Below, piece after piece: positions 10,033 through 61,735 of a stretch of DNA of 64,000 nt. The number at the start of each line of letters is the position of its first letter. Position 1 is the stretch's first letter. The notes beneath the pieces are model-generated. The model had not been told where the DNA came from and did not search any database. It saw only the letters and a program-made list of their open reading frames with translations. The stretch lies in the IMG/VR virus record IMGVR_UViG_3300042391_001456, positions 1 through 64,000 of that record. One strand, written 5' to 3'. This DNA is from a virus. A program made the position numbers and the translations under genes.

Positions 10033-10257
10033 ATGAAATTTGACTATGAAATAATAAAGGATTTTATTATTGAAAAAGATCCTACAGTAAAAAGAAAAAA
10101 TATCATTTTTGAAAATGTTTATTTATCAGAAGAATTAATAATGGCTCCTTATAGAGAACTTATTTGGTCAAATAAATTTAGTGTTAAGTTAGAGGACTAC
10201 GAACATAGACTAAAAGAAAAGTTGAGAGATAATAAACTGAGTGAATTAGGAATATAA
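10033..10257 (+). CDS. Small hypothetical protein with C-terminal RDxK tag (LRDNKLSELGI)
   Basis: ORF followed by a terminator at about 10257-10285. Confidence 0.7.
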   Translation: MKFDYEIIKDFIIEKDPTVKRKNIIFENVYLSEELIMAPYRELIWSNKFSVKLEDYEHRLKEKLRDNKLSELGI

Positions 10258-10335
10258 AAAAAGAGGTTTTTAAACCTCTTTTTTTATTTTTAGGGAGTTA
10301 TTATTTTTATATATAACATTAAAATTAATTTTTTA

Positions 10336-12075
10336 ATGGCTTCTTATAATTATAGAAATAATAACAGTGGTGATGGAATGGGTTTTGTAAATTCCGCTGT
10401 TGAAAATAAAGGTCTTTTTAATAGAATACTTCGTAATTTATCCAATTATGGTATGAATTATGATGATATGATAATTAGAAACCAAGTTGGTGTCGGTATT
10501 AATGAAGATCCTTATAGTGCTAAGGGTGATTCAATGTATAATTTCTTTTCACAGAGAGCTGTTGCTTCTGTTTTGAATAGAAAATCTATTCCTTATTTAG
10601 ATAGATCTTATCCAGATAAAAGAAGAATATTAAGAGAATATTCTATTAAAGATGAAATTAGAGATTTTGTTAGTGCAATTGCAGATGAATCAATTGTGTA
10701 TAATGATACAAAAGATTTCTGTTCACCATCTCCTCTTTCAAATGATTATTCTAAGGAAATAACTGATAAGTATCAAGAATACTTTGAGAAAGTTTACAAT
10801 AAATTTGGATTTTCTGATAGTGTAACTGCTTATCAAATGATGAAAGATTTTCTAATCGATGGTTATCTTGCAATTGAATTAGTTTGGGATGATAAAAAGA
10901 AGAATATTATTGCTTTTAATAGATTAAGACCAGAGAGTATAGTTCCTGCTTATGAGCCAAATGTTGGACACTTATGGATTCAATTTCCGGAAGATCCTCA
11001 GTTAAGAAGAATATTTTTAGATTCACAAATTGTTTTTATATCCTATTCTTCTCAGAATGATTATTCAGAGACATCATATGTTGAGGGTTTGATTAAGCCT
11101 TATAATCAGTTAAAAATTCTAGAACAAACTAGAATTATGTTTAACATTATGAATGCGACAATTTATCAAAAATTCACTATTCCAATTAAAGGTATGTCTC
11201 GTCAAAAAGCCGAAGAACAAATAGGTCAATTGATACAGGATTACTCGGAAGAGATTGAATTTGATGAATCATTAGGTACTATTCAGGTTAATGGGGCTAA
11301 ACACATACCTTATAATAAACAAGTTTGGTTCCCAGAGGGTGATGCTGGTACGCCAAATATGGAATTAATGACTCCACAAGGACATGATTTAAATGAAGAG
11401 TCTATGTTAAAGTGGTTTCATCAAGCACTTAAAAGAGCTTCTAAAATACCAGTTACTAGGTTTGAAGCTGAGAGTGGTGGTGGTACATTTGTAGCAGATC
11501 AATCTGGATTAACTAATGATGAGGTTAAATTTCATAATTTTATTGGTAGATTAAGAGCTAATTTTAAAGAATTAATTGTTAAACCAATAAAATTGCAAAT
11601 GTTAGTTGAGTTTCCTGAACTTATTGAAGATGATGTTGTTATGAATGAAATAGATATTAATTTCAACTCTAATCAAATTTTTGAAGAATGGAAAAAAATA
11701 AATAACTTAGCAAAAAGAGCCGAGGCAATTGGTACATTGACTGGTATTATGAATGGTGATAAACCTTATTTTCATATTGAATGGATTATGGATCATGTGT
11801 TTAAATTGACACCGGAGGAAAAAGCAGAGAATCAAAAATACTGGGCAAAGGATAGTTCTGGTGTTGGTTCTGGTGGTGCTCAGGGTGGTGCTCAAGGTGG
11901 AATGGATATGGGTGCTCAAGGTGGTGCTCAAGGTGGAATGGATATGGGTGCTCAAGGTGGTGCTCAAGGTGGAATGGATATGGGTGCTCAGGGTGGTGCT
12001 CAAGGAGGTCAAGCGGCTCCTGAAACTCCACCAGCTCAAGGTGGTGCTCAAGGTGGTGCTGAATTTGAATTCTAA
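10336..12075 (+). CDS. Portal protein (T4 gp20-like) with Gly/Gln-rich C-terminal tail
   Basis: FLIDG, SYVE..IKPYNQLKILE, KAEEQI, ASKIPVTR, DEVKF..FI.RLR..F. Confidence 0.95.
   Translation: MASYNYRNNNSGDGMGFVNSAVENKGLFNRILRNLSNYGMNYDDMIIRNQVGVGINEDPYSAKGDSMYNFFSQRAVASVLNRKSIPYLDRSYPDKRRILREYSIKDEIRDFVSAIADESIVYNDTKDFCSPSPLSNDYSKEITDKYQEYFEKVYNKFGFSDSVTAYQMMKDFLIDGYLAIELVWDDKKKNIIAFNRLRPESIVPAYEPNVGHLWIQFPEDPQLRRIFLDSQIVFISYSSQNDYSETSYVEGLIKPYNQLKILEQTRIMFNIMNATIYQKFTIPIKGMSRQKAEEQIGQLIQDYSEEIEFDESLGTIQVNGAKHIPYNKQVWFPEGDAGTPNMELMTPQGHDLNEESMLKWFHQALKRASKIPVTRFEAESGGGTFVADQSGLTNDEVKFHNFIGRLRANFKELIVKPIKLQMLVEFPELIEDDVVMNEIDINFNSNQIFEEWKKINNLAKRAEAIGTLTGIMNGDKPYFHIEWIMDHVFKLTPEEKAENQKYWAKDSSGVGSGGAQGGAQGGMDMGAQGGAQGGMDMGAQGGAQGGMDMGAQGGAQGGQAAPETPPAQGGAQGGAEFEF
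11875..12060 (+). repeat. 36-bp tandem repeat x3 plus partial copies (GAQGGAQGGMDM) in the portal tail
   Basis: GGTGCTCARGGTGGTGCTCAAGGTGGAATGGATATG units at 11875, 11911, 11947. Confidence 0.95.
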
Positions 12076-12085
12076 AAATTACTAT

Positions 12086-12118
12086 AAAAAAACCTCTCAA
12101 TATTTGAGAGGTTTTTTT
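12086..12118. terminator. Bidirectional intrinsic terminator
   Basis: AAAAAAACCTCTCAA-TAT-TTGAGAGGTTTTTTT. Confidence 0.85.
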
Positions 12119-12575
12119 ATGCTACATTATTTTCTTCTTTTATGTAAAAGTGACTGAATTGATCATCTATAAAACTCATTGATATTTCTAATTCAATTCC
12201 TGAATCCAATAGACCTATTATTGTTCTACCTAACTCTGTCTGTAATGGTCTCCATTCTATTTCCAACTCCTCAATAAAATCATTCTTTATAATCATTGAT
12301 ATAGTTTTCACTGCAAAAACTATATCAGATAACATTGGATCTGATGATCTATCACTACCAAGTTTGCCCCATTCATTAATATCTTCAATATCAAATTGAA
12401 TTCTTTTCCCCTCTAATAAAGAGTTTAATTTAATTTCTCTTTTAAATTGAATCCAGTTGGGCCACTTTTGTAATTTATCTTCAAATTGAGATATTTTGAT
12501 CCCATCTAAATAAAATTTATACTTTCTATTTTTTAGATGTGAATCACCACCATCTATTCTAAATAATTGACTCAT
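12117..12575 (-). CDS. Degenerate prohead-protease (gp21) paralog with internal RExK tag
   Basis: WGKLGSD...MLSD and RPLQTELGRTIIGLLDSGIELEISMS align by eye with YGEFDHP...SLSR and RLLSTYWGKEAKALVDDGCPVFVSSR of ORF 51590. Confidence 0.55.
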   Translation of the reverse strand: MSQLFRIDGGDSHLKNRKYKFYLDGIKISQFEDKLQKWPNWIQFKREIKLNSLLEGKRIQFDIEDINEWGKLGSDRSSDPMLSDIVFAVKTISMIIKNDFIEELEIEWRPLQTELGRTIIGLLDSGIELEISMSFIDDQFSHFYIKEENNVA

Positions 12576-12578
12576 AGT

Positions 12579-14483
12579 TTAAAATTTTAAAAAGTCTATT
12601 TGTTTCTTTTCTAAATTTGTTGATTTTACGACAACTTTTATTTTATCACCTAATCTTATTTCTTCCCCTAATTGACTTATCGCAACATATTTATCTGGAT
12701 ATGCCATCCATTTTCCTGGTAATTCTGATAATCTAATCAACCCTTCACACTTATTTTCTTCCAATTCTATATAGATTCCTCTATCTAATACACCGGAAAC
12801 TATACCATCAAATACTCTGCCTATTTTATCACTTAAATATTCCACTTGTTTATATTTAATTGAATCTCTCTGAGCTTTTGATGAAACAACTTCTTGTTTT
12901 GAGATCCATTCACATTTTGTATTTAAATCACCTGGTGTTAATTCACCTTTATATTTTTCTTGACCTAATGCTTTAGATAATAATCTATGTGTTAGTATAT
13001 CACTATATCTTCTTATTGGTGATGTAAAATGTGAATAATGTTGAAATCCTAGTCCATAGTGACCAATATCTCTGGTTGAGTATTTAGCTTTTTGTTGAGC
13101 TCTTATTATTAGAGTTGTTATTATATTCTCTTCACTCTCACCTTTTATCTTTTTAATTAGTTCATTTATAACTAACTTTGTTTTTTCAACTGTGTCCCCA
13201 AAGTGAATATCATATCCCAATCCTGATATAAATGATTTGAAATGTTCTAATTTACTTTCTTCTGGTTCTTCGTGTATTCTATTTACACATGGTAGGTTTC
13301 TAGACTTTATAAATTTAGCAACTTCTCTATTTGCTAATAACATATATTCCTCTATTAGGTGATTAGCTTCTTTTTGTTCTTTTAAATAAACCCCTATTGG
13401 TTTTTTATTATCATCTGCTAGTTTGAATTTAACTTCAACTCCTCCTATTTCCATAGAACCACCTAACATTCTTCTCTTTCTCATTTTTCTAGCTAATCTA
13501 TTTAATTCTAGAATTGCAGAATCACAATCTTTCCATTCTTCTGATGGTGTTCCTCTGTCGATAACTTCTTGAGCCATTTCATATGAGTAATCTCTATCTA
13601 CATTTATTATAGTTTTACCAAACCAAGTGCTTTCTATTCGACCATCATTATTTAACTCCACAATCACAGAAAAACATAGTTTATCACTTCCAGATTTGAG
13701 TGAACATATACCATTACTTAATCTCTTTGGTAACATTGGGACACATCTATCAACTAAATAAACGGATGTTGATCTTCTCAATGCTTCTTTATCTAATTCT
13801 GATCCTGGTTTTATATAATGTGTTACATCTGCTATGTTTATAGAAATAAATCTTTTACCATCTTTAAATTCCAATCCTATTGTATCATCCGCATCTTTTG
13901 AATCATGTGGATCTATTCCAATTGTTGGGACATTTCTTAGATCTCTTCTTCTTGATATTTCATTTTCTGTTATTACTTCAGGCATTATTTCCGCCTCATT
14001 TAAAACTTCTTGTGGAAAATCAACTGGTAATCCATATTCATACATTATAGCATTCATTTCAGTTTCATTCTCTCCTATAGATCCTAAAATTTTAGTAATT
14101 TTAGCATTGGGAGACTTTTGTCCATTTTCCCAACCAATAAATTCAACTAAAACTTTTTGATTATCTTCGGCTTTGTGAGATCCTTTTATATAGAAATCGA
14201 CATGTATTTTTGGATTATCTGGTATAACAAATGTGTGGTCTTTTTTTACTTGAGTGGTTCCTACAAATTCTGTTTTAAATCTCTTCACAACTTCTATTAC
14301 TTCTGCTTCTAGTTTTTTACCATTATCAAATAGTTTGACTTTTACCGTATCTAAGTGTAGTGAGTTACTTGTTCTTTTTTTGTTTATAAAAAATTCTTTT
14401 CCTTCGAATTTTAAAGTTCCATTTCCAGCTACTGAAAATTCTATTTGAGATTCTATTATATCTCCTTCTTTGTATTTAGCCAT
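12579..14483 (-). CDS. rnr: Ribonuclease R
   Basis: CSD domains, RNB motifs IDPHDSKDADD, IADV, IEEYML.AN, HFTSPIRRYSD, C-terminal S1. Confidence 0.92.
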   Translation of the reverse strand: MAKYKEGDIIESQIEFSVAGNGTLKFEGKEFFINKKRTSNSLHLDTVKVKLFDNGKKLEAEVIEVVKRFKTEFVGTTQVKKDHTFVIPDNPKIHVDFYIKGSHKAEDNQKVLVEFIGWENGQKSPNAKITKILGSIGENETEMNAIMYEYGLPVDFPQEVLNEAEIMPEVITENEISRRRDLRNVPTIGIDPHDSKDADDTIGLEFKDGKRFISINIADVTHYIKPGSELDKEALRRSTSVYLVDRCVPMLPKRLSNGICSLKSGSDKLCFSVIVELNNDGRIESTWFGKTIINVDRDYSYEMAQEVIDRGTPSEEWKDCDSAILELNRLARKMRKRRMLGGSMEIGGVEVKFKLADDNKKPIGVYLKEQKEANHLIEEYMLLANREVAKFIKSRNLPCVNRIHEEPEESKLEHFKSFISGLGYDIHFGDTVEKTKLVINELIKKIKGESEENIITTLIIRAQQKAKYSTRDIGHYGLGFQHYSHFTSPIRRYSDILTHRLLSKALGQEKYKGELTPGDLNTKCEWISKQEVVSSKAQRDSIKYKQVEYLSDKIGRVFDGIVSGVLDRGIYIELEENKCEGLIRLSELPGKWMAYPDKYVAISQLGEEIRLGDKIKVVVKSTNLEKKQIDFLKF

Positions 14484-14853
14484 TTTTATTTTTATTTTTA
14501 TCTCGTTTTGTATCTAGAGTTTTCCTCATTTTATCCATTACTTCATTATTTTGTATTGGATAATCAACTCCAAATGATTTTCTGAGAGTGTCTTTTCTTT
14601 TTGGTTCTGAACATTTTCTACAAAGATAATCTCCCCATTTTTTATTATCATATAGTAAATAGTTTTTATAGATTATATTTTTCTCAATTCCACAAGAGTC
14701 ACATTTGCATTTTATTTTAAAGTGAGATCCTTTTGAGAGTAGTTCGGGTGGTATAACAATAGTTTCTCCTATCGTAGTTTCGTAACCAAGATTGGTAAAA
14801 TAATTTAAATTATTTATATTAATTTTTATATTTATTTCCCTAGTGAGAATCAT
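14476..14853 (-). CDS. Zinc-ribbon protein resembling the DNA-binding part of phage homing endonucleases
   Basis: LSKGSH...CKCDSCG...CRKC, FGVDYPIQN; no nuclease domain. Confidence 0.65.
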   Translation of the reverse strand: MILTREINIKININNLNYFTNLGYETTIGETIVIPPELLSKGSHFKIKCKCDSCGIEKNIIYKNYLLYDNKKWGDYLCRKCSEPKRKDTLRKSFGVDYPIQNNEVMDKMRKTLDTKRDKNKNKNG

Positions 14854-14976
14854 AATTTTATCTATTATAATATTATATATAAAATTTTATGGATTGTTTA
14901 AACAAAATAGTTTATTAAAATATAAATTGAAGAGAAAGATATATTATAATATATATCAAAAAAATAATAATTAAAT

Positions 14977-15918
14977 ATGTCACAAAATGAAATGAGTGAA
15001 GAAGATTACTTAAAAAGACATCTTCAAGATTTGGAAGAAGGTAAAAAATCTCAAAATTTTATAAATTCTGATATTCCAATTTCTAATCCAAATATAGATA
15101 ATACTAGAGCATCTGACTTACAATACTTTAATTTTGATGTTAAGGAATTACCTTGTGGTCAGTTTTATCCATCTGGAACACTTTTTATGGTTAGACCTGC
15201 TCAAGTTAAAGAGATTCAATCATATTCGATGGTTGATGATAATAACTTTTATGATATTGTTGAGAAAATGAATGATATGTTACAGTCGTGTGTTCGTGTT
15301 AAATATGCTGATGGTAGAGTTTCTTCATATCTTGATATTAAAGATCAAGATAGATTGTTTCTAGTTTTTTTAATTAGAGAATTAACCTTTCAACAAGGTA
15401 ATGGTTTATCAGTTAATATAATGTGTAAATGTGGTGAAGAAAATGTTATTGAGTTAAAAAGAGATAATTTTGTTTATCATGATATTGATGATAAATTATT
15501 TAAATTTTATAATAAGAATACTGGTTCTTATCATTTCAACACTGTTAATGATAAAAATTTCGAACTTACTCCACCAAATATTGGATTACAAAAGGCATTT
15601 ACTGAATACATTTTAAAGGAAAATAATGAAAAAAGAAATCCAAATTTAGCATTTTTAAAAATTATTCCTTTTATGTTAGGTGGTAGAAGTAATATTACAT
15701 ATGATGGTATCAAAGCTAAATTAAAAGAATTTGAACAAATGGATCAAACATCTTTTCAGTTTTTAAATGCCGCTGTGAGTAAAATGACGTTTGGTATCAA
15801 AGAATTGAAGAAAAATTGTTCGTGTGGTGAGGAGATCCACACGGATATGCAGTTTCCCAACGGAGCCTCAGGTATTTTCGTTATTCATGACGCCTTTGAA
15901 GCATATATTAAAGAATAA
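14977..15918 (+). CDS. Baseplate hub / tail assembly protein (T4 gp26-like)
   Basis: LP.G.FY, VRP..VKE, DR.FL...IRE.T, CKCG and CSCG zinc knuckles. Confidence 0.8.
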   Translation: MSQNEMSEEDYLKRHLQDLEEGKKSQNFINSDIPISNPNIDNTRASDLQYFNFDVKELPCGQFYPSGTLFMVRPAQVKEIQSYSMVDDNNFYDIVEKMNDMLQSCVRVKYADGRVSSYLDIKDQDRLFLVFLIRELTFQQGNGLSVNIMCKCGEENVIELKRDNFVYHDIDDKLFKFYNKNTGSYHFNTVNDKNFELTPPNIGLQKAFTEYILKENNEKRNPNLAFLKIIPFMLGGRSNITYDGIKAKLKEFEQMDQTSFQFLNAAVSKMTFGIKELKKNCSCGEEIHTDMQFPNGASGIFVIHDAFEAYIKE

Positions 15919-30378: not shown

Positions 30379-32517
30379 ATGAGTAAGATAAAAAGTGATG
30401 ATGATAGACAAATAGTATTTACTACTAAGCTTGTTAATGAGTCTGTTGATAAAATAAACGATGGTATTCTATTAAAAAGATATGAAAATCCATGGTTAAA
30501 GGGTGAGATTGGTATAAGAAGAAGTGGTGTTATTTTTAAAATGACTGCTGAAGAGCAACAAGAATATATTAGATGTGCTCTTGATATACATTATTTTACT
30601 GAGAAATATTGTAAAACTAAACGAGAAGATGGTAGTGTTGGTTCTATAAAATTAAGAGATTATCAAGAAGAAATATTAGATAATTTTGTTCAGAATAGAT
30701 TTAATATACTAATGGCCGCTAGGCAATGTGGTAAAACAATTTCATCATCTATATTTATATTGCATTTTTTACTATTTAATAATGATAAGAATGCGATGCT
30801 TATCGCGAATAAGGGTGATACTGTTGTTGAGGTTGTTGATAAGATAAAGTCTATATATGCTTTATTACCATTCTTTTTAAAACCGGGTGTAAAAGTTTGG
30901 AATCAAAAGTCTATAACATTTGATAATGGGTGTAGAATTAAAACATCTGCTAGAACAAAAACACCAGCAGTTGGTTTTACCATAGATCTTCTCTATTTAG
31001 ATGAGTTTGCTCACATTCCTTCTAATATTATTGAAAGTTTTTATACCGCGGCTTTTCCGACTGTATCAGCTGTTCAAAATTCAAAAATTATTATTACATC
31101 TACTCCAAATGGTATGAATTTGTTTCATCGATTGTTAACAGATGCAGAGAGACCTGATGGTGATCCACAGAAGAATAACTACAAACCTATGAGAGTTTAT
31201 TGGTATCAAGTTCCTGGTAGGTTTGTTACATATATTAGATTGAATAATCATAAAATGTATGAACATGGTATCAAATCTGGTGATATATTATCATTAGTTA
31301 AAAATGATTGGGGAGATTTAACTAAAGTTGAAATGTCTTTTGATTTAGATCAACAAAAAGATGTTATTCATGTTTTTAATAATGATAAATGTTCATCTGA
31401 TGATATTAAAAGTATTCAGTTTGAGGATAAAAATGAAAACTGGAATTCAATTTTATCTATATCCGAAATAACTACTTGGAAAGATGAGGCTGTTAAAGAT
31501 ATTGGTGGTGAGGATGCGTTTAATCAAGAATATGGATTGAGATTTATCAATGGTAGTAGATCTTTATTATCAGAAGAGATAATAGATGATATTTTAAAGT
31601 CTAAAAAGAATTACGTATATGAGGAGTTGGATGAGTTTAAAAAATTGAGGTTTAATTATAGTGATCTTAAATGGATTGATTGTGATGATATGTATTTGCC
31701 AATTAATAGAAAAGATTATAAGATCGTTATATCGGTCGATATATCAGAGGGATTGGGTCAAGATTATTCCATTATTAATATTTTTAAAGTTTCGAAAAAA
31801 GAAACAGATTTAATTGAATCTCAAAGATTCAAATATAAATCCATAGTTGACTTTTTTAGATTAGAACAAATTGGAATTTATAGAAATAATTTTATATCCG
31901 TTAAACAATTATCCGAATTATTGTATTTAATTGCATTTGAATATTTCAACCCTGAAAATGTTAAAATTGTTTTAGAGTTGAATAATTATGGTAATACACT
32001 TTTAGCTGAGATGCCACATGTTTTTGATGGTAATAATCAATATGGATCATCCATCTTTGTCAGATATAAACACAGAGTTGATTCGAATGAGGAAAAAGTT
32101 GGTTTAAAAGTTGGAGATAATAAAAATATGATGGTCAAAGATTATCAAGATTTAATGCAAACCGGTGGTATATTTATTACAAATGAAGACAACATTAGAG
32201 AAATTACGACATTTGTTAAACATATAACTTCATCAGGAAATATTAGATATGCTGCTGATGGTAATAGTAATGATGATACAGTTATGACGTTAGTAAATAT
32301 GACTACAATTTTTGGAAAGCCCGAGTTTAAGGAATTTGTAGAGGATTTTGGAAATTCTGATAAATCATTTATGGAATACATAAATAAATGTATGAGTGAA
32401 TCTGACTTTGTTGAAAGTTTGGATTATGGTCAGGTGCTAAGAGCAAGAAAACAATTTATTAATAGAACAAAACCAAGTTATAATAGTAATATTAATTGGT
32501 TCGGTCAAAATAAATAA
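30379..32517 (+). CDS. Terminase large subunit (T4 gp17-like)
   Basis: LRDYQ, ARQCGKT Walker A, LYLDEFAH Walker B, ITSTPNG, VDISEG.G.DYS, NDDTVM. Confidence 0.96.
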   Translation: MSKIKSDDDRQIVFTTKLVNESVDKINDGILLKRYENPWLKGEIGIRRSGVIFKMTAEEQQEYIRCALDIHYFTEKYCKTKREDGSVGSIKLRDYQEEILDNFVQNRFNILMAARQCGKTISSSIFILHFLLFNNDKNAMLIANKGDTVVEVVDKIKSIYALLPFFLKPGVKVWNQKSITFDNGCRIKTSARTKTPAVGFTIDLLYLDEFAHIPSNIIESFYTAAFPTVSAVQNSKIIITSTPNGMNLFHRLLTDAERPDGDPQKNNYKPMRVYWYQVPGRFVTYIRLNNHKMYEHGIKSGDILSLVKNDWGDLTKVEMSFDLDQQKDVIHVFNNDKCSSDDIKSIQFEDKNENWNSILSISEITTWKDEAVKDIGGEDAFNQEYGLRFINGSRSLLSEEIIDDILKSKKNYVYEELDEFKKLRFNYSDLKWIDCDDMYLPINRKDYKIVISVDISEGLGQDYSIINIFKVSKKETDLIESQRFKYKSIVDFFRLEQIGIYRNNFISVKQLSELLYLIAFEYFNPENVKIVLELNNYGNTLLAEMPHVFDGNNQYGSSIFVRYKHRVDSNEEKVGLKVGDNKNMMVKDYQDLMQTGGIFITNEDNIREITTFVKHITSSGNIRYAADGNSNDDTVMTLVNMTTIFGKPEFKEFVEDFGNSDKSFMEYINKCMSESDFVESLDYGQVLRARKQFINRTKPSYNSNINWFGQNK

Positions 32518-32540: not shown

Positions 32541-32819
32541 TTAATTGGAATCCATTGTTACTGAAAGACCAGCATTTTTAAGTTTATCTTTCATATCGGA
32601 AATAGTATCATAATCACCATATTTAACGTCACATCTACCATTGTGATGTACTATAAATGCGCATTGATTGGCTTGTTCGTATTCGTGTTTACAAATTTTC
32701 ATTAAACATGTGATTACCCAATCAAATGAATTGTAGTCATCGTTTTCTAAAATTAGAACATATGGACTAGACAAGATTTCTTCTACTTGTGATTCTACTT
32801 GTTCTTTAGTTTTACTCAT
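32541..32819 (-). CDS. clpS: ATP-dependent Clp protease adaptor ClpS (Bacteroidota-type)
   Basis: LILENDDYNSFDWVI..L...EQA.QCA..VH..G.C.VK.G. Confidence 0.9.
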   Translation of the reverse strand: MSKTKEQVESQVEEILSSPYVLILENDDYNSFDWVITCLMKICKHEYEQANQCAFIVHHNGRCDVKYGDYDTISDMKDKLKNAGLSVTMDSN

Positions 32820-48294: not shown

Positions 48295-48519
48295 TTATTT
48301 ATCAATTATTTGGTCAATTTTTTCGTCACGAATTTCAGATTTAGATTTAATGACCGTTAATCTACTCTCAGAAATAACATCAACTTCATCATTATAATCA
48401 TCACCTAAATATTCAATTACTTCATCCTCGGAATTTGCTAAGTAAACACCACAAACACAATCCCATCCCATTTCTACATTGGTTAGGACATAGATATTTT
48501 TACCTTTTAAGTCTATCAT
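48295..48519 (-). CDS. Small early protein with C-terminal RDxK tag (IRDEKIDQIIDK)
   Basis: ORF coupled by TAATG to the upstream ORF. Confidence 0.75.
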   Translation of the reverse strand: MIDLKGKNIYVLTNVEMGWDCVCGVYLANSEDEVIEYLGDDYNDEVDVISESRLTVIKSKSEIRDEKIDQIIDK

Positions 48520-51589: not shown

Positions 51590-53713
51590 ATGAAACCAGT
51601 TTTAATTGTAGAAAATTCGACTAATTCCTTAATTAAGGAATCTGTAGCTAAGAACGATTATATATTAGGTGGTATTTTCACTGAATTCGGAGTTAAAAAC
51701 CGTAATGAAAGAATTTACACAGCTGATAAATTTCTTCCAGCTTTACAGGAGATGAATGAAAGAATGTCTGGATTAGGAGCCGTTTACGGTGAATTTGATC
51801 ATCCAGATGTTTTTGATACTTCATTATCAAGAGCTTCTCACATAATTACAAAAGCTAATTATGTTCAGGAATCTAATCACGTTGCTGGTGAAATCAGATT
51901 ATTAAGTACTTATTGGGGTAAAGAAGCTAAGGCGCTTGTCGATGACGGGTGTCCTGTTTTTGTTTCTTCTAGAGCAGCAGGTATTACTGAATCTGATGGA
52001 TCAGTATCTCTTAAAAAATTATTTACTTATGATATCGTTGCTGACCCTGGATTTGCATCTGCAAAGATGAGTGTTAAGGTCTTAAATGAGTCATTAGGTT
52101 ATGATAATCCACAATCTAACTTTAGGATATATGAAATGTCCGATGAGTCAAAAATAAATGATCTATTTAACATGAATAAAAATGAATTTGTTACCAAGCA
52201 ACAATTAACTGACTATTCTAAATATTTAGTTAATGAATTAGCTTCTACTAAAAAAGAAGTTAAAACTGCTATTTCTAAAGGTAATTTAACACCTAAGAAA
52301 TTAGAGCAACTACTTGAGTATTATGATGAGTTAAATACTACTAATACACAAGTTGTTAAGTATTTAGATTATTTAGCTGAAAAAGTTCAAATTATGGTTA
52401 ATGAGAATAAGTCTTTGAAAGAAACAACAGACAAACTTATTAAACACAATGACTATTTAGCTGAAAATCTTGAAAAAGCTGTTAATTACTCTGAGTATTT
52501 AGCTGAAAATTTAGATAAGAATATTGCTTATTCTGAATATGTAGCTGAGAACTTAGATAAAAACATCTCTTATTCTGAGTATATCGCTGAGAACTTAGAT
52601 AAAAATATTGCTTATTCTGAGTATATCGCTGAGAACTTAGATAAAAATATTGCTTATTCTGAGTATATCGCTGAGAACTTAGATAAAAATATTGCTTATT
52701 CTGAGTATATCGCTGAGAACTTAGATAAAAACATCGCTTATTCTGAGTATATCGCTGAGCACGTTGATAATAATATTGCGTATTCTGAATATTTAGCTGA
52801 GCACGTTGAGGGAAATATCGCTTATTCTGAGTATATCGCTGAGAATTTAGATGATAACATCGCTTATTCTGAGTATATCGCTGAGAATTTAGATAAATCT
52901 ATTTCTTACTCTGAAATGATTACTGAAACACTTAAGGGTGGTAAAGTATTCGAATCATATGAAAATTTCCCAACATTACAAGATGCTGGAATTTCAGCAA
53001 TTGAATCTGAAAAAGAAGAAGTTGAAGAAAGAGAAGAAGAAAGAGAAGATTTAGGTATCTCTCACATTTCAGACGAAAAAGAATATTACACAGAAGAAGA
53101 AAAAGAAGAAAATATTGAAAATTTAGAAGAAGAAAAAGAAGAAGAAGAAGATTGTACACCTGCTTATGAAGAAAAAACATTTAATGGTGATACTGATACT
53201 GAGCTGTCTTTATCTATCGATAAACTAATTGAGGAAGCTAAAAAACGTAAAGTTTCTGAAACATCAGATTTGAATTTCTTGAAATTCTTATCTAAATCAC
53301 AAGTTGATAGTTTTTATGCATTAACTAATGAAGAGCAAGAAACTGTTAAACTTCACATAAACGAAAGAAGTTACTTCACAGGAAAAGAAGTTCTTACATT
53401 AATTTCTGAAGCACTATCAACTAAAAATGAAACTCTTGAAGAAAGAGTTATCAGAATGATGCCTGAAAACACTAAGGCTATCTGGAATCAGTTAAATGAA
53501 TCTGCTAAAAAATCTTTCCTTTCACAGGCTAGATTATACCCAGAGGAAATGTTGATGACTGAATCACAAGTTGATCATTTCTGGGGAACTAGAAACATCA
53601 AAACAAATGAATCTGTAACTAAAAAATTAGTTTCTCATGATGCTTTAATTCAAGAAGATAAATTATCTGATAATGAAGTTAGTGCTATTATGGAAAGGTT
53701 CAAAAATATTTAA
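51590..53713 (+). CDS. Prohead protease (T4 gp21-like) fused to a scaffold/core region
   Basis: KNRNERIY, GEFDHP, SH.I, VSSRAAG, TYDIVADPGF; then coiled-coil repeats and an acidic linker; directly upstream of the capsid gene. Confidence 0.93.
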   Translation: MKPVLIVENSTNSLIKESVAKNDYILGGIFTEFGVKNRNERIYTADKFLPALQEMNERMSGLGAVYGEFDHPDVFDTSLSRASHIITKANYVQESNHVAGEIRLLSTYWGKEAKALVDDGCPVFVSSRAAGITESDGSVSLKKLFTYDIVADPGFASAKMSVKVLNESLGYDNPQSNFRIYEMSDESKINDLFNMNKNEFVTKQQLTDYSKYLVNELASTKKEVKTAISKGNLTPKKLEQLLEYYDELNTTNTQVVKYLDYLAEKVQIMVNENKSLKETTDKLIKHNDYLAENLEKAVNYSEYLAENLDKNIAYSEYVAENLDKNISYSEYIAENLDKNIAYSEYIAENLDKNIAYSEYIAENLDKNIAYSEYIAENLDKNIAYSEYIAEHVDNNIAYSEYLAEHVEGNIAYSEYIAENLDDNIAYSEYIAENLDKSISYSEMITETLKGGKVFESYENFPTLQDAGISAIESEKEEVEEREEEREDLGISHISDEKEYYTEEEKEENIENLEEEKEEEEDCTPAYEEKTFNGDTDTELSLSIDKLIEEAKKRKVSETSDLNFLKFLSKSQVDSFYALTNEEQETVKLHINERSYFTGKEVLTLISEALSTKNETLEERVIRMMPENTKAIWNQLNESAKKSFLSQARLYPEEMLMTESQVDHFWGTRNIKTNESVTKKLVSHDALIQEDKLSDNEVSAIMERFKNI
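52445..52927 (+). repeat. 42-bp (14-aa) in-frame tandem repeat YSEYIAENLDKNIA, 10 full copies plus 2 degenerate
   Basis: Units start at 52487 and step by 42 to 52907. Confidence 0.97.
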
Positions 53714-53797: not shown

Positions 53798-55489
53798 ATG
53801 TCACACATTAGAATAGACAATGCGAAAGCAACTAAGAAATGGGCTCCAGTTTTAGAAAACATGGGAGTAACTGGTGATAGAGTTGAATGGATGGCTGAAT
53901 ATGCTGAGTTTCACTCTATTAACGAAAATGCGTATGTAAACGCTGCAAACGTAGCAGGTATGGGAGCTATAACAGCTGCACAACCAGGATTATATGCTGG
54001 TACTACTACAACTGCTGCTCAAGGTACATATGGTCCTTTATCAGGTTCAGGAGACGTAGGTCAAAACCTTTTACCAGTAGCTATGAAAATTGCTGCTCAA
54101 ACAATCGGTTTAGATTTAGTAGCAGTTAAACCAACTCCAGGTCCGAAAATCGATTTACTTTATGTAGATTTCGTTTATGATGACGTTGATCAATTACAAA
54201 ACGAAAGACCACAAGTATTTAAATTAGCAAGTGTTAACGAAACTTTGGTAAATAACTTAACTAATTTGGTTAAAGCTGAAGGTAGATTAGTAACTGGTGG
54301 TATCAGTGGTACTAGAGTTTTTGTTGGTATTACACAATCTAACGCATTTAGCGCAACTTCAGAATCTTCGTTCCCAGCAACTGGAAAAGCAGGTGTTGTT
54401 GAATTTTTAGGTTTCTCAAGAATTGATGGATATCCAATGTTTAAAGCTTATAGACAAGCTAATACAGGTGGTCAATTTAACTACTTCTCATTTGATTCAA
54501 AATTAAATACATTTGACTCATCTAGTGCTATGTCTGCTCAGATTAAAACAATCGCTGGATATACTTTCTCAGCTGCTCCTTCAATTGAATTAGTATCTGC
54601 ATTAGAAGATCATATCCCAGGTTTCTCTGCAAACTGGACAGGAGCAAAAGCATCTGGTGATTATCCAATGGATCGTTACTCTGATGATACATCTTATTCA
54701 GGTGTTATCGGACCAAAAATCTCTTCTAAAACTATCGCAGTTGGTACTATCGAAGTATCTTCAGCTTTAAGAAGAACTGAAATCGAAGATATTAAAGCTA
54801 ACACTGGTATGGATATCGTTCAAAAAATGGAATCTATCCTTGTTAATGAATTATCTCAAACAATTTCTAAACAAATCGTTGCTAAGATTTTTGAAATGGG
54901 TGAATTAAACAGAAAAAGTAGTGCTCCTTTAAGATCAGGTGTTTCTTCTTTCGTTTCTGCTTCTGCTTCAACTATCTTTGACTTGAACACTAATTATGCG
55001 TCTACTTCAGTTTCTGGTGAAACTACTCACGCTGTTCAAAGAAAATTGATTACTAAAATTGCACACGCTTCTAACTTCATCGCTACTGAAGGTCGTGTAG
55101 GACCAGCTCAATACATCATTACAAATGGAGGTTTAGCTGCAGCACTTCAAGATATCGCTGGTTATACTATTAACCCAGTTAAATCTAAATTAAACGGACA
55201 AGGTCAATTATACCCTGTAGGTTCAATCGGAGATATTTCTATCTATGTTGATCCATACATGAAGTATAATGATAACAGAATCGTTTTAGGAAGAAAAAAC
55301 AACGCTGATCAACCAGGTATCATTTTCGTACCTTATTTAATGGCACAATCTATCTCAGTTATTTCTGAAGCGACTTTCGCTCCAAGAATGTTACTAAGAT
55401 CAAGATATGCAGTTGCTGAAGTTGGATGGTATCCACAAAAACAATTTATGACGATTGTTGTTGAAGATGCAAATCAATTATTAAACTAA
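53798..55489 (+). CDS. Major capsid protein (T4 gp23-like)
   Basis: KKWAPVLE, DLVAVKP..GP, YVDPY, FVPY, TFAPR....SRY. Confidence 0.95.
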   Translation: MSHIRIDNAKATKKWAPVLENMGVTGDRVEWMAEYAEFHSINENAYVNAANVAGMGAITAAQPGLYAGTTTTAAQGTYGPLSGSGDVGQNLLPVAMKIAAQTIGLDLVAVKPTPGPKIDLLYVDFVYDDVDQLQNERPQVFKLASVNETLVNNLTNLVKAEGRLVTGGISGTRVFVGITQSNAFSATSESSFPATGKAGVVEFLGFSRIDGYPMFKAYRQANTGGQFNYFSFDSKLNTFDSSSAMSAQIKTIAGYTFSAAPSIELVSALEDHIPGFSANWTGAKASGDYPMDRYSDDTSYSGVIGPKISSKTIAVGTIEVSSALRRTEIEDIKANTGMDIVQKMESILVNELSQTISKQIVAKIFEMGELNRKSSAPLRSGVSSFVSASASTIFDLNTNYASTSVSGETTHAVQRKLITKIAHASNFIATEGRVGPAQYIITNGGLAAALQDIAGYTINPVKSKLNGQGQLYPVGSIGDISIYVDPYMKYNDNRIVLGRKNNADQPGIIFVPYLMAQSISVISEATFAPRMLLRSRYAVAEVGWYPQKQFMTIVVEDANQLLN

Positions 55490-56590: not shown

Positions 56591-56616
56591 TATATACTAA
56601 AAATAAAAATAAAAAA

Positions 56617-58452
56617 ATGGCAGAAGAAACAAATCTACCAAAAATAAAAATATCTAAAGAATTAGCATCGGTATTACAAAAAACTGAAGACTTAGGTGAT
56701 TATATCTCATTTGAAATAATTTGTATGGGTGATGATGATAGTGAGCATTTTAATGGTTTAAAAATTACAGATGTGAATGTTTCAAAAAAAGATTTTTGTT
56801 TTGAAGTAACTACATTAGATGGTAAGAAAATGGATATGAAGTGTGGTAATTTCATTAGATACTACTTTCATAACTATTTTACACCAAGTGATATTCAAAA
56901 CTTCGTAAACCTTTATAATAAAGTTAAAAATGGTGAGTCAGTGGCTGATGAAAAAATTCCAATCAATGTTTCAAAGTTTGAATATAATCCGTTAGATCCG
57001 AGATCTACTTTTCTTTCACTTGTTACTAAAACATATCCACATGGACACGAAGATGAAGTTCTTCAATTCTTACCACAATTGGATAAAGATATCGTTGGAA
57101 ACTATTACAAAATAATTGGAGATAATCCAACAACAATGTTTACATGTCATTTAGATACTGCTGATAGAAAACAGGCTGTTACAAGACTTTATTCTATACA
57201 AGTTGATGATCAAGAACATATTGTTACCGATGGTACAACTGTATTAGGAGCTGATGATAAATCAGGAACAACAGTTATGTTATATATGATGGCAAAAAAT
57301 GTACCAGGTCTTTATTACTTCTTTATCGGAGAAGAAAGGGGTGGTATTGGATCTAGAGCTTTAGCTGATAAATATGATGAAGTTTCTTATTTAAAAAATA
57401 TTAAAAGATGTGTTTCTTTTGATAGAAGAAAGACTATTTCAGTTATCACCTCACAAGCAGGTGGTGTTTGTTGTTCTGATGAATTTGCAAATGCTCTTTG
57501 TGATGAGTATAATAAAAATGGATTAAATCTTAAACCAGACCCAACTGGAGTATTTACTGATTCGGCTTCATTCATTGATGATATTTCAGAATGTACAAAT
57601 GTTTCTGTTGGATATCTTAACGAACATACTGGTAAAGAAATTCAAAATATGGATTATTTAATAGATTTATGTAAAGCATCTGTTAATGTTAATTGGGATT
57701 CATTACCAACTGTTAGAACTGTTCAAGATAGAGCAGCTATGAAAGAAATGATTAATAGAGTAAAATCTTCAAATAAAGAATTTGTTGATTCGTTAAAAGG
57801 TGTTAATTTGGATAAAACTATTTCCACAGATTATGGAAATGTATATGTTAATTTTGATTTAGATAATGAGTCTCTTGATAACATCATTGAAAGTTTAACA
57901 GAGTTGAGAAAGGTAATGAGATTACACAAAAAGCCAGCTTCTTGTTTATTCGATGAAACTTATTTACAAATATTTTTAGGTAAAGAAAGTGGTCAAAAAA
58001 TAACAACACTTGATATTGAAGATGATGATAAATATGAGTCTCAAAAATTAAAAAAATATGAACAATTTTTAACTGAAAAATACTGGGATGATGAAGATGG
58101 TCAAGATGAAGATGAAGAAGATAACGATAAAGAACAAGATATAGAACATCTTAAATATCTTTTAAGGCAAATGTTGACTAAAGCAGGTATTAAGAATTCT
58201 ACAATAACTAATAATGGATTGAATTTAAAAATTCAAATTATTCCACCATCGTATGGGATGATTGACTATTTTTATAAATTAGATGATATTATACACATCT
58301 ATGAAACAATTAAAAAGTTTGATAAAGATATTTTAGTTGATTTTGATTTAGAGTGTGATATTTGGGAAACTAAAAAAATAGAACCTCTTTTAATTTTCAA
58401 TTTCTATTCTAACCAAGATGATTATGAAGATGAATCTGGTTTACCATTTTAA
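56617..58452 (+). CDS. M28/M20-like zinc peptidase with internal tag (KLKKYEQFLTE) and an extra C-terminal domain
   Basis: CHLDT, LGADDKSG, GEERG..GS, SFDR, TDS, N.SVGY..EHT. Confidence 0.85.
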   Translation: MAEETNLPKIKISKELASVLQKTEDLGDYISFEIICMGDDDSEHFNGLKITDVNVSKKDFCFEVTTLDGKKMDMKCGNFIRYYFHNYFTPSDIQNFVNLYNKVKNGESVADEKIPINVSKFEYNPLDPRSTFLSLVTKTYPHGHEDEVLQFLPQLDKDIVGNYYKIIGDNPTTMFTCHLDTADRKQAVTRLYSIQVDDQEHIVTDGTTVLGADDKSGTTVMLYMMAKNVPGLYYFFIGEERGGIGSRALADKYDEVSYLKNIKRCVSFDRRKTISVITSQAGGVCCSDEFANALCDEYNKNGLNLKPDPTGVFTDSASFIDDISECTNVSVGYLNEHTGKEIQNMDYLIDLCKASVNVNWDSLPTVRTVQDRAAMKEMINRVKSSNKEFVDSLKGVNLDKTISTDYGNVYVNFDLDNESLDNIIESLTELRKVMRLHKKPASCLFDETYLQIFLGKESGQKITTLDIEDDDKYESQKLKKYEQFLTEKYWDDEDGQDEDEEDNDKEQDIEHLKYLLRQMLTKAGIKNSTITNNGLNLKIQIIPPSYGMIDYFYKLDDIIHIYETIKKFDKDILVDFDLECDIWETKKIEPLLIFNFYSNQDDYEDESGLPF

Positions 58453-58500
58453 TAAAATTAAATAACTCACTTTTTTAGTGAGTTATTTTTTTTTAAACTT

Positions 58501-58532
58501 TTTGTATATTTAAAATATTATATATATATTTG
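58501..58532 (+). promoter_or_regulatory. Full Bacteroidota consensus promoter TTTG-N20-TATATTTG for the tmRNA
   Basis: TTTG 58501-58504, TATATTTG 58525-58532. Confidence 0.8.
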
Positions 58533-58554
58533 TAGAAATAATTACAAAAACTAT

Positions 58555-58920
58555 GGGGGCGTCATTAGATTCGCCTAGCAGTGTGTAGGTGGTTATGCAG
58601 GAATCGGGTTTTCATATGTCCGATCAATAAATTATATGATAACGTCGTAAATGGCAAAACAAATGAAGTAGGAACTCGTGAAGATTTAGTAGCGGCCCTA
58701 AACGCAATCAAAGCTGAAGAGCTTGAATTAGTTTAATTAAGAGAAACTAATCAAAAAAATTCTCCGACTGTATCACACAGTAAATGTGAAACCAGAATTG
58801 TTAGAGTGATGGGTTAATTCAACTAACTATTTTGTAAGTTTAGAAAAATTTACTATTCCTGTGAATGAGTAATTACAAACAGCTGATTAGTACACCCGGG
58901 GCGGTTCCGGGTCGCTTCCA
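58555..58920 (+). ncRNA. ssrA: tmRNA
   Basis: Acceptor stem GGGGGCG/CGCTTCC-A with G3.U70; T-arm ACCCGG/CCGGGT; long P2 helix (GCAGGAAT/ATTCCTGT); pk1 (TCGGGT/GTCCGA with TCATAT/ATATGA); tag ORF 58653-58736; terminator follows. Confidence 0.9.
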
Positions 58921-58925
58921 CTAAA

Positions 58926-58954
58926 CAAAGTCCACTTTTAAAGTGGACTTTTTT
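58926..58954 (+). terminator. Intrinsic terminator after the tmRNA
   Basis: AAAGTCCACTTT-T-AAAGTGGACTTTTTT. Confidence 0.85.
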
Positions 58955-58975
58955 GTTTTAAAAAATATAATTTTT

Positions 58976-59467
58976 ATGAGTTCTATTGAAGGTTTTAAAG
59001 GAGAATGGTCATTCTTATCGAATTTTTATCCATGTGAGATTCAATATGATGGATTAACTTATAAAAGTGTAGAACATTTTTATGTTGCTATGAAATTCAA
59101 TAATGAACAAATGATTAATGGGAAACATTATACTATTGGAGATTTTCGAGAAATGATTTCACTCACACCAAGTCCTGGTTTAGTTAAAAAAATTGGTCAA
59201 AAAATTATAATAAGATCTGATTGGGATATCAGAAAATTGAGATTTATGAATTGGGCAATTCGTGAGAAGTTTAAAGATATAAACTTATCAGAACTTCTTA
59301 TTGGCACAGAAGATATGGAATTAGTTGAGTCTAATAATTGGAATGATACTTTTTGGGGAGTTTGTAACGGAAAAGGTAAAAATCATCTTGGTAAAATATT
59401 GATGAAGGTTAGAGATGAGCTAAGAGGTGTTGAGAAAAAAACTGGTTTAGAAGAATTTTTTAATTGA
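58976..59467 (+). CDS. NADAR (YbiA-like) hydrolase
   Basis: FLSNFY, Y.SVEH...A.K, R.DW, KF...L..LL..T...LVE...WND.FWG...G.N.LG.ILM.VR. Confidence 0.92.
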   Translation: MSSIEGFKGEWSFLSNFYPCEIQYDGLTYKSVEHFYVAMKFNNEQMINGKHYTIGDFREMISLTPSPGLVKKIGQKIIIRSDWDIRKLRFMNWAIREKFKDINLSELLIGTEDMELVESNNWNDTFWGVCNGKGKNHLGKILMKVRDELRGVEKKTGLEEFFN

Positions 59468-59522
59468 AACTTATAGTTAAGTTATCTCTATAACTAAAGA
59501 AAAAATAAATATAGAAAGTAAT

Positions 59523-60476
59523 ATGTGCGCAATGATAAGTTATTTTGGTGGTAAGAGTTCAAATGTTTTCCACGAATTTATAAATAAAAAAATACCCAAA
59601 GATGGTAGTATAAAAACCTATTTAGAAGCATTTAGTGGTTCAATGGGTACTTACTTAGATGATGATTCTTTAAAATTTGACACGGTTATCTATAATGATA
59701 AAAACCGTCATCAAGTTAATTTGTATTATTGTTGTTCGAAACCAGAAGAATTTTTACCTTATTTAGAAAATCTTAAAAATACTTTATTAAAGACTGAAGA
59801 AACAGAAGTTTTAAAAAAGTGGGATTTCTATAAAGGTATTTATAAGGAGTATCAAAAGAATGATTTTTTAGATAATACTGATTTCCAAATTGGAGACTTT
59901 GAAAAGGCCGCTATTTATGCTTTTCTTATCACATCCGCTCACAACTCTGTGTACCCACGTGGAGCGGGCTTCAATGGTTACAAAAAAGATAAAGATAGAC
60001 TTAAATTGGAAGTTCTTATTGATAAATTAAAAAAGAACAAATATACAGAGAAGTTACAATCAATCACTGAGTATAATAACATCGATTTTGAAGAACTTAT
60101 TACTAAATATGATAGTGTGGATACTTATATCTATTTAGATCCACCATATGCAAGATTTAACGAAGGTAAAGGAGATGATGATGGTAAGAGATTGTTTTGG
60201 TACGGTTCTGATAAGGATGGTGTATTTGGTCCAGCTTCACATAGAAGACTTTTAGAGTTGATTAAAAAATCAGAAGCTAGATGGTCATTATCATATTACT
60301 ATTTTCCACTTTTAGAAGAGTTATTACCGAGAGATAAATATTTTTGGTTTGAGAAAGAAGTATTTAGAAGCTCTGCACAAGGTGGTAATAATGCCGATCT
60401 TAAAAAAGAACAAGAAAAAGGAGTTGAGTTATTGATATTAAACTACAATCCGGAGACTGGTGAAAAAATAAAGTAG
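59523..60476 (+). CDS. DNA adenine methyltransferase (Dam/D12 class)
   Basis: YFGGKS, EAFSGS, YND, YLDPPY. Confidence 0.9.
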   Translation: MCAMISYFGGKSSNVFHEFINKKIPKDGSIKTYLEAFSGSMGTYLDDDSLKFDTVIYNDKNRHQVNLYYCCSKPEEFLPYLENLKNTLLKTEETEVLKKWDFYKGIYKEYQKNDFLDNTDFQIGDFEKAAIYAFLITSAHNSVYPRGAGFNGYKKDKDRLKLEVLIDKLKKNKYTEKLQSITEYNNIDFEELITKYDSVDTYIYLDPPYARFNEGKGDDDGKRLFWYGSDKDGVFGPASHRRLLELIKKSEARWSLSYYYFPLLEELLPRDKYFWFEKEVFRSSAQGGNNADLKKEQEKGVELLILNYNPETGEKIK

Positions 60477-60479
60477 TTT

Positions 60480-61169
60480 ATGTATAGTGATTTAATAAAA
60501 GGAGTTAATGAATTATTAAGTATTGATACAAGAGACTTTTTAATTTTAGATGATACTATAACATCTAATAAGAATACTGTAAGTATTTCTGTTCATCTCA
60601 CAGCAAACGATTCAAATATAGAACAATTTGTTAGTCATGTTAAATATGAAGTTTTTAGAACTTTATATAAGTACATCTTTAAACAGATGAAATTTAATAA
60701 TAAATTTATTGATTTGAGAAATCTTAAATTTACTGAGAAATTAAATAGGACTAGTTTATTTTTATCTCAATTTAAATATAAAAACATATTGAGTAATAGT
60801 AGAATATCGACTGAACTACAAGATTCATTATCTTTTCATTTTTCTAAAATGAAACCAAATACATCCAGTGATATTTATGAAATAGGTAAGTATTTAGATT
60901 TTGAAGCTTATGTTGATCCATATCTTAGATATAGTGATGAAGAGATTTATTTATTTAATGATATACGATTTAATATAAATAACTTTCAATATGATGTTAT
61001 CAGTGAAGCAACTTTTACACCAAGATTGATGATTACTTATGATTTTTATTTTGAAATATTTGATAATGAAATAGTTTATATCATAGATGATGAGTTTCAA
61101 AAATCATTACCAATTCTATTATCTCAAATTAGAGACGAAAAAATAGATAAACTTATAAATGGCAATTAA
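60480..61169 (+). CDS. Truncated, degenerate major-capsid-protein paralog with C-terminal RDxK tag
   Basis: YEIG...YVDPYLRYSD..I.L and VISEATFTPRLMI match capsid YPVG...YVDPYMKYND..I.L and VISEATFAPRMLL; ends IRDEKIDKLINGN. Confidence 0.85.
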   Translation: MYSDLIKGVNELLSIDTRDFLILDDTITSNKNTVSISVHLTANDSNIEQFVSHVKYEVFRTLYKYIFKQMKFNNKFIDLRNLKFTEKLNRTSLFLSQFKYKNILSNSRISTELQDSLSFHFSKMKPNTSSDIYEIGKYLDFEAYVDPYLRYSDEEIYLFNDIRFNINNFQYDVISEATFTPRLMITYDFYFEIFDNEIVYIIDDEFQKSLPILLSQIRDEKIDKLINGN

Positions 61170-61419
61170 TCCACCAAATCCATTTCTTGTTAATTCATCG
61201 ACTAATCAGTCAATTCCACTTCTTATCAATTCATCGACTGGTGAATCGGCACTTATAGTTGACTCGGATGGTAATGTTATAGTTAAGAAATTAGTTTTAT
61301 TGGATGATAAAACTGGAAAGAAATGGGAGGTAAAAATTTCTGATGGTGAAATTTACATGGAGCCTCTTGAAAAATCTGATAAAAGAGATTTTAAAATAAA
61401 AAAGATTTTAAATGACTAA
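61159..61419 (+). CDS. Small protein with C-terminal RDxK tag (KRDFKIKKILND)
   Basis: ORF overlapping both neighbours. Confidence 0.75.
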   Translation: MAINPPNPFLVNSSTNQSIPLLINSSTGESALIVDSDGNVIVKKLVLLDDKTGKKWEVKISDGEIYMEPLEKSDKRDFKIKKILND

Positions 61420-61735
61420 ACACTTAGATAGAATATACAAAATGGGATTTATTGTAACATTAGATTGGAATATGTGTTTTACGATAACTTTACCACACTA
61501 TCATTCTCCAAATTTTGGTCATGAGTGTAATGTTTTAGTCTGTCAATTTGATGATACGATCATAAATATAAAATTTTCAGAGGTTGTTGAATATTGCTGT
61601 GATATTTTTTATGAATGGTATAATGAATATGTTCATATAATAGATGATACAACTCCAGAAGAGTTTAGTAAAATAACTTTAGGTAACATAACAACTCGTG
61701 TTAATAGAGACTTAAAATTAGATAAACTACTATAA
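61412..61735 (+). CDS. Small protein with C-terminal RDxK tag (NRDLKLDKLL)
   Basis: ORF followed by a bidirectional terminator at about 61738-61766. Confidence 0.75.
   Translation: MTKHLDRIYKMGFIVTLDWNMCFTITLPHYHSPNFGHECNVLVCQFDDTIINIKFSEVVEYCCDIFYEWYNEYVHIIDDTTPEEFSKITLGNITTRVNRDLKLDKLL

Follow-up and report, generated by a model that had tools for sequence, protein, structure and literature searches.

A modular C-terminal peptide on small, non-late proteins of huge phages and its possible role as an address tag

Terminal peptides and domains that mark proteins are known from several systems. The capsid targeting sequence (CTS) of phage T4 is an N-terminal peptide found on a handful of late proteins (IPI-III and Alt), and it is cleaved by the prohead protease. 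The ssrA tag, the SspB XB peptide and the MuA tail are C-terminal degrons or adaptor-binding peptides of Clp proteases. In poxviruses, ankyrin host-range proteins carry PRANC, a folded domain some 40-50 residues long through which they bind eukaryotic Skp1. We study here a C-terminal peptide, the R tag, with the strict motif R-[DE]-x-K-[IL]-x-x-[IL]. It was noticed in a 64-kb stretch of virus DNA (IMG/VR record IMGVR_UViG_3300042391_001456, positions 1 to 64,000), called the window below, which is the first part of a 102,753-bp phage contig with 27% GC. The head genes of this phage are T4-like. The initial annotation of the window listed the peptide on six proteins, but this understates a proteome-wide feature: six further tagged open reading frames (ORFs) lie on the contig outside the window, and in complete relatives a relaxed form of the tag terminates ~20% of all ORFs and 35-40% of the ORFs with 80-120 amino acids (aa).

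The closest relatives are large, as judged from the major capsid protein. That of the window is 68-70% identical to those of LR745206.1 and LR756502.1, uncultured phages of 635-642 kb obtained from lake freshwater and from the subsurface (PMC9723777), and 50% identical to its counterparts in LR756504.1 and LR756501.1. We compared the window with the whole of LR756502.1, LR745206.1 and LR756504.1 and with parts of five other large phages. The compared genomes are related to each other, and the IMG/VR contigs used in addition are possibly incomplete.

The count of the strict motif against shuffled controls, which had been proposed as a check, gives a clear enrichment at the C-terminus. Among 120 ORFs of the contig there are 10 strict matches, 8 of them within the last 15-16 residues and none in the first 16, while composition-preserving shuffles give on average 0.47 matches overall and 0.025 at the C-terminus (binomial P for position 1e-10). 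The same holds in LR756502.1, where 67 of 78 strict copies are C-terminal, compared with 2.75 and 0.1 in shuffles (P 4e-78). LR745206.1 has 92 strict copies, of which 74 are C-terminal. Reversing the motif leaves 0 matches in the contig and 4 in LR756502.1. Together, shuffles and reversed motif rule out an artefact of the composition of a 27% GC genome. With the relaxed motif, R-x-x-[KR]-[IL]-x-x-[IL]-[LGI], the numbers of tagged ORF ends in the three complete genomes are 191/911, 181/871 and 162/866 (the last is LR756504.1), where 16-18 are expected. Further, in a de novo scan of the last 16 residues the pattern R...phi..phi (phi, hydrophobic) ranks first in each complete genome.

The tail is longer than the strict motif. 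Its logo extends over ~14 residues, phi-K-S-x-phi-R-[DE]-x-K-[LI]-x-x-[LI]-[LG]-[I/x], with an amphipathic pattern of hydrophobic residues at -5, -1, +4, +7 and +8. Two endings are seen, ...L-G-I-stop and ...I-L-(0-4 residues)-stop; by its sequence, the L-x-x-L-G-I form would fit a helix C-cap. In LR756504.1 the tail takes a variant form with R-K, ...E-[YH]-R-K-x-[KIR]-I-[EDN]-x-L-[LI]. When the motif is anchored without its arginine, Arg is found at that position in 101/105, 100/106 and 31/33 of the C-terminal hits and Lys in none. An arginine that is invariant, and never replaced by lysine, fits specific recognition.

The conservation is at the level of the protein. Arginine codons in the tails follow expectation closely (AGA 110 observed and 110.8 expected, AGG 23 and 19.1, CGN 15 and 18.2). 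For leucine and isoleucine all codons are used in genome-wide proportions, and the two residues interchange. Since synonymous codons at the conserved positions match genome-wide usage, selection acts on the protein. This bears directly on the idea that a conserved DNA or RNA signal for recombination, processing or re-initiation sits at the gene ends and that the peptide is incidental. The DNA coding for the tail does lie directly 5' of the next gene in dense arrays, as such a signal might. However, the codon usage nearly refutes it (AGA, AGG and CGN as well as all Leu and Ile codons are used as in the rest of the genome), several tails precede terminators and not genes, and the motif is always in the frame of a long ORF. 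We regard a nucleic-acid signal as extremely unlikely.

The bodies that carry the tail are unrelated, as the initial annotation held. With the tails removed, the 75 bodies of strict carriers fall into 73 BLAST clusters, and only 16/196 and 7/191 carriers have a paralogue in the same genome; paralogy of the bodies is therefore rejected. Carriers are from 53 to about 730 aa long. When 72 of them were scanned against Pfam and PHROG, hardly any matches were obtained, and the few recognised carriers match differing families in these databases. The ESM Atlas gave no lead. Turnover is fast: no tagged protein of LR756504 has an orthologue in LR756502 or LR745206, nor vice versa; all three complete relatives lack homologues of most tagged proteins of the contig; and among orthologues the tail is sometimes lost, degraded or extended.

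Could all carriers nevertheless descend from a single small protein, so diverged that only the last helix, an element of its fold, can still be recognised? The tandem arrays and the similar small gene sizes would agree with this, as would paralogue families of up to 7 members in LR756504.1 that share a longer segment, F-x-T-x-x-E-[YH]-R-K. Against it stand the range of lengths, the 73 clusters among 75 bodies, and the gain or loss of the tail between orthologues. Further, the recognised carriers belong to different PHROG and Pfam families, one of them is a paralogue of the capsid protein, and in a structural model a linker separates tail from body (see below). Common descent of this kind appears quite improbable to us.

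The six peptides first noticed in the window are all found in the named ORFs, five at the C-terminus and one internally (Table 1); the coordinates first given for them are ORF boundaries, not motif positions. Most informative is the ORF at 60480-61169. Its residues 103-185 align with residues 440-533 of the major capsid protein (E 8e-12), so that, judged from this alignment, it is a paralogue of the C-terminal part of that protein that bears the tag. Because the alignment to the capsid protein is followed by the tail, the tail has here been added onto a domain of known ancestry. R218, D219, K221, I222 and L225 are invariant across 26 sequences of this family, and tagged orthologues are present in LR756502.1 and LR745206.1. 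The ORF had been described as a broken head protein. The relationship to the capsid protein stands, but the protein is not broken: more than 30 metagenomic clusters conserve it, tail included. The AlphaFold2 model of this paralogue (predicted local distance difference test score, pLDDT, 46) is too poor for use.

A better model was obtained for the ORF at 48295-48519, where AlphaFold2 predicts a beta-beta-alpha-beta body (residues 7-49, pLDDT 72-86), then a linker (residues 50-58, pLDDT below 50) and a helical tail (residues 59-71, pLDDT about 60). This agrees with the helix that had been proposed for the tag. In 13 full-length metagenomic homologues of this family the tail is conserved or invariant.

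The remaining ORFs show how variable the carriers are. The one at 10033-10257 has a tail of the LGI flavour and a distant tagged homologue in LR756502.1. Orthologues of 61159-61419 are tagged in LR745206.1 and have a degenerate tail in LR756502.1. For 61412-61735, which is followed 3' by a terminator-like hairpin, no homologue is present in the three complete relatives. The three genes of 60480-61735 are indeed consecutive, as claimed, with overlaps of 11 and 8 nucleotides (nt). The internal motif of 12117-12575 is retained in the orthologues of LR756502.1 and LR745206.1. This ORF, too, had been taken for a copy of a head protein, but BLASTP shows no similarity to the phage's prohead-protease domain.

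The tag occurs well beyond these genomes. A DNA pattern for R-D-x-K-L-x-x-L-G-I-stop identified 16 loci on low-GC IMG/VR contigs, at which almost all small ORFs are tagged, for example 19 ORFs in 10.9 kb at L046. Counts of the pattern over whole records are 7-62, compared with 1-2 for the control. Three tag-bearing IMG/VR contigs have capsid proteins 73-76% identical to that of the window. In 596 Gb of bacterial genomes the pattern has 6 matches, which is the chance level, and none is at the end of a plausible gene. The R tag is restricted to phages. Within phages it is absent from the sampled parts of LR756500.1, LR756501.1, Lak-B5, Chryseobacterium phage MA9V-1 and Tenacibaculum phage PTm1, which form our tag-negative set. 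LR756501.1 has another tag, [LE]-D-P-Y-G-E-E-[ND]-W, at 29 C-termini and 34 internal sites in the 400 kb sampled, on carriers of 55-843 aa; no tag of this DPYGEENW type was found in the other genomes examined. Variation between lineages (R-D in two genomes, R-K in LR756504.1, DPYGEENW in LR756501.1) would be expected if the tag co-evolves with a reader.

Two side observations belong to this survey. LR756500.1 encodes about 15 proteins of 150-370 aa that end in H-x-x-N-A-D-D-F-G-[FL]-[FL]-D-N; from their sequences they look like one paralogue family and not like a tag on unrelated bodies. The IMG/VR contig G002, whose capsid protein is 76% identical to that of the window, is rated 95% complete by CheckV at 385 kb. 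As its complete relatives have 635-642 kb, CheckV completeness is doubtful for this clade.

Carriers of the R tag differ from other genes in position and in upstream sequence. They cluster near the two ends of the complete genomes, where they form co-directional arrays; of the LR756502.1 ORFs, 40/55 at 620-640 kb and 23/54 at 0-20 kb are carriers. A second tag, M-K-[HY]-[LI]-K-x-[YF]-x-E-F, is N-terminal and present on about 15-20% of ORFs. The two tags are negatively associated (odds ratio 0.26-0.5, P down to 1e-7), so the C-terminal tag is largely exclusive of the N-terminal one, in line with the initial annotation, which had noted that the six proteins avoid a KxFE tag. Consensus strings of known promoters failed to tell the gene classes apart, but a de novo k-mer comparison of upstream regions succeeded, and gave the motif TAATATATA, mostly located 10-30 nt ahead of the start codon. 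The share of genes that have it upstream is 39-44% in the N-tagged class, 0.6-3.7% in the C-tagged class and 13% in the remainder. In analogy to the T4 motif TATAAATA, we take it as the probable late promoter of these phages. On this assignment the C-terminal tag, whose genes rarely have the motif, marks non-late genes, as had been supposed. Host-type promoters had also been claimed for tagged genes, and upstream of 9582 and of the 48689-48295 operon (minus strand) there are sequences that read as Bacteroidota-type TAnnTTTG elements.

These observations bear on a possible role in the capsid, where the tail would bind the inner face of the HK97-fold shell, in the manner of encapsulin cargo, and load proteins for ejection. 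Such a role would call for a short peptide at the C-terminus of unrelated proteins and for a capsid of the HK97 type, and both are present; the L-G-I ending, and the carrier that is a paralogue of the capsid protein, point the same way. However, carriers are depleted of the late-promoter motif that is found before the portal, capsid-protein and terminase genes, they lie in terminal arrays distant from the head module, and late proteins already have a separate, N-terminal tag that resembles the T4 CTS. Loading of the capsid by the R tag is thus very unlikely.

We favour the reading that the tail serves as an address and that a single partner, common to the carriers, reads it; we judge it evenly poised between right and wrong. 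The interpretation in the initial annotation, a docking helix that joins many domains to one hub, adaptor or protease, is thereby supported in part. It is suggested by the tail being modular, under selection at the protein level, invariant in Arg with no Lys, separated from the body by a linker and variable between lineages. The tail would form a C-terminal amphipathic helix on a flexible linker, carried by small, fast-evolving, non-late accessory proteins. The partner, whose existence we infer, would recognise the invariant Arg and the hydrophobic face, and would treat some fifth of all proteins as a single class, be it for docking, localisation or timed degradation. The leading concrete guess for it, on the unlikely side when taken by itself, is a Clp-type unfoldase or protease that removes early proteins in a timed manner. 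Phage ClpS, Hsp100 and ClpP might then be combined with host components. A Clp link is suggested by gene content, as phages with the tag tend to have ClpS, and those with complete genomes encode two ClpP and one Hsp100.

In a phyletic profile, 46 proteins of LR756502.1 are common to both other tag-positive genomes and unseen in the sampled tag-negative ones. This set includes ClpS, Hsp100, PrkA with DUF444, GrpE, NusG and a low-molecular-weight (LMW) phosphatase-like protein. ClpS (PF02617) is present in seven tag-positive records (the three complete genomes, the window and three IMG/VR contigs) and in 0/5 tag-negative ones, counts that are not independent because the compared genomes are related. 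By these occurrences ClpS is the best genomic correlate of the tag, and we treat it as a lead only. ClpP has two strong copies in each complete genome and one or two in five contigs, and Hsp100 (about 700 aa in the complete relatives) is found in five tag-positive records. Iyer et al. 2021 considered ClpP and ClpS of jumbo phages a likely means of directing proteins to the host ClpAP, and described no shared tail (PMC7824862).

Several points weigh against a shared partner, and against a Clp-type partner in particular. None of the phage genes tested as a candidate reader is found in every tag-positive record. The tag-positive 344-kb contig G004 lacks ClpS, G003 lacks Hsp100 and G002 lacks ClpP, all three contigs being possibly incomplete; in addition, ClpP is present in tag-negative Lak-B5 and Hsp100 in tag-negative LR756501.1. 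ClpS is known as a reader of N-termini, not of C-termini. In W1-W2 orthologue pairs the tail is 55% and the body 45% conserved, a modest gap. Finally, the last conserved hydrophobic position lies 0-8 residues from the end of the protein, and some 15-20% of the copies are internal, so a free carboxylate at a fixed distance is not needed.

Other candidates for the reader were rejected. ClpP and Hsp100 are shared by tag-negative phages. PrkA and DUF444 form an adjoining pair only in the three complete tag-positive megaphages and in no tag-negative record. The LMW-phosphatase-like protein, whose gene lies inside a tagged array, is likewise limited to three genomes and has no significant tag-negative match. 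For MoxR, PF07726 has no match above the cut-off in 13/13 records, and PF00217 of McsB-type kinases is absent from all 16 phage records.

That the search turned up no reader would also agree with self-association, in which tails would bind to tails, in short coiled coils or helical bundles, giving oligomers or one mixed assembly with no separate reader. The amphipathic pattern and a predicted helix free of the body are what one would expect in this case. It is harder to explain the preferred Asp and Lys and an Arg that is never Lys, an unusual combination in a simple coiled coil; with its two to three helical turns the tail is short for a stable bundle, and the Gly-Ile ending is more like a helix cap than a coiled-coil end. 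Self-association is in our view unlikely.

If the address-peptide reading is extended to both tags, huge phages may run a two-label protein sorting code, a possibility that we put forward tentatively and with some doubt. A lineage-specific C-terminal peptide (the R tag, or DPYGEENW in LR756501.1) would mark the early accessory fifth of the proteins, which evolves fast, and an N-terminal CTS-like peptide with its own late promoter would mark a second fifth. The C-terminal label would have a receptor of its own, by which the early effectors would be routed or timed jointly.

The genomes of megaphages consist mostly of small orphan genes, and the tag is an experimental handle on them. Found at ~20% of ORF ends, it defines a functional class among orphan genes and predicts non-late timing. 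It is also a simple metagenomic marker for this phage group. Should the two-label code be true, the tag could be used for capturing hundreds of orphan proteins. The reader, if it exists, would be a central control point of the infection, and, were it of the Clp type, phages would have a first virus-encoded degron system of proteome-wide reach.

Table 1. Tagged ORFs, neighbouring genes and upstream motifs, with positions in the window unless another accession is given.
Feature	Position	Strand	Details
74-aa ORF, directly 5' of T4-type portal gene	10033..10257	+	tail LRDNKLSELGI then stop, residues 60-74, nt 10210-10254
74-aa ORF	48295..48519	-	C-terminal peptide IRDEKIDQIIDK, runs to stop
Tail of 48295-48519	residues 59-74, nt 48298-48345	-	EIRDEKIDQIIDK then stop
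229-aa ORF	60480..61169	+	C-terminal peptide IRDEKIDKLINGN, runs to stop
Tail of 60480-61169	residues 213-229, nt 61116-61166	+	SQIRDEKIDKLINGN
86-aa ORF	61159..61419	+	tail KRDFKIKKILND to stop, residues 71-86, nt 61369-61416
107-aa Cys/His-rich ORF	61412..61735	+	tail NRDLKLDKLL to stop, residues 94-107, nt 61691-61732
152-aa ORF, internal motif copy	12117..12575	-	KREIKLNSLL residues 45-54; REIKLNSLL residues 46-54, nt 12414-12440
ClpS-like adaptor gene	32541..32819	-	72% identical to LR756502.1 ClpS
N-tagged ORF starts	34039, 34708, 34939, 35417, 45871, 47029, 47370, 55973		
Motif (T)AATATATA	about 10-40 nt upstream of 10336, 30379, 53798, 55622, 56617, 25872, 17179		before portal, terminase, capsid-protein and N-tagged genes
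Portal gene	10336-12075		PF07230
RNase II/R-type exoribonuclease	12579-14483	-	RNB E 3e-100, CSD2, S1; also in three complete relatives
Terminase gene	30379-32517		head module
Prohead-protease domain	51590-53713	+	PF03420, E 2e-7; N-terminal part of 707-aa protein, directly 5' of major capsid protein gene
Major capsid protein	53798-55489		
PrkA (AAA + C-terminal domain) adjoining DUF444	LR756502.1 273831-277142		

Compared with the systems named at the outset, the R tag shares with the T4 CTS that it is a short terminal peptide on unrelated proteins of a phage, here one that is T4-like in its head genes. It differs in being C-terminal, in ending ~20% of ORFs and in marking non-late genes; the counterpart of the CTS seems to be the N-terminal tag instead. 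With the Clp degrons, which commit unrelated proteins to one machine, it shares the short C-terminal peptide. The tag-positive phages encode ClpS, two ClpP and an Hsp100, although ClpP and Hsp100 are found in only part of the tag-positive records and also in tag-negative ones. However, the R tag lacks Ala-Ala or a similar terminal signature, and the fixed signature with a free carboxylate of an ssrA-like degron contrasts with its variable distance from the end and its internal copies. Two further routes depend on components that the phages lack: an arginine-phosphorylation degron (McsB/ClpC) requires a McsB-type kinase, absent from the 16 phage records, and the vWA-MoxR coupled C-terminal peptide systems require a genome-encoded MoxR AAA+ ATPase, for which the 13 records gave no match.

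Encapsulin cargo peptides are, like the R tag, short C-terminal peptides on unrelated proteins, and the encapsulin shell has the HK97 fold. The R tag differs from them in having no GSL-x-IGSLK-like core, and, whereas encapsulin cargo is co-expressed with the shell protein and mostly encoded next to it, the tagged genes are neither adjacent to the shell gene nor late. Clamp-binding motifs (QL[SD]LF and the T4 gp45-binding tails) have paired aromatics, whereas the R-tag logo has no conserved aromatic at core positions. The first helix of HeH/SAP/Rho_N domains ('E-L-R-x-x-x-K-E-L-G-I'), after which come an extended loop and a second helix, is presumably similar, but tagged proteins end at G-I, without a second helix. 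In architecture and genome organisation there is a likeness to the poxvirus ankyrin/PRANC (F-box-like) proteins, with variable bodies, a conserved C-terminal element, terminal arrays and rapid turnover; the R tag, in contrast, is a 14-residue helix in a bacterial virus. We found no published description of it in the literature, and it would be a further example of terminal address peptides, with a chemistry of its own.

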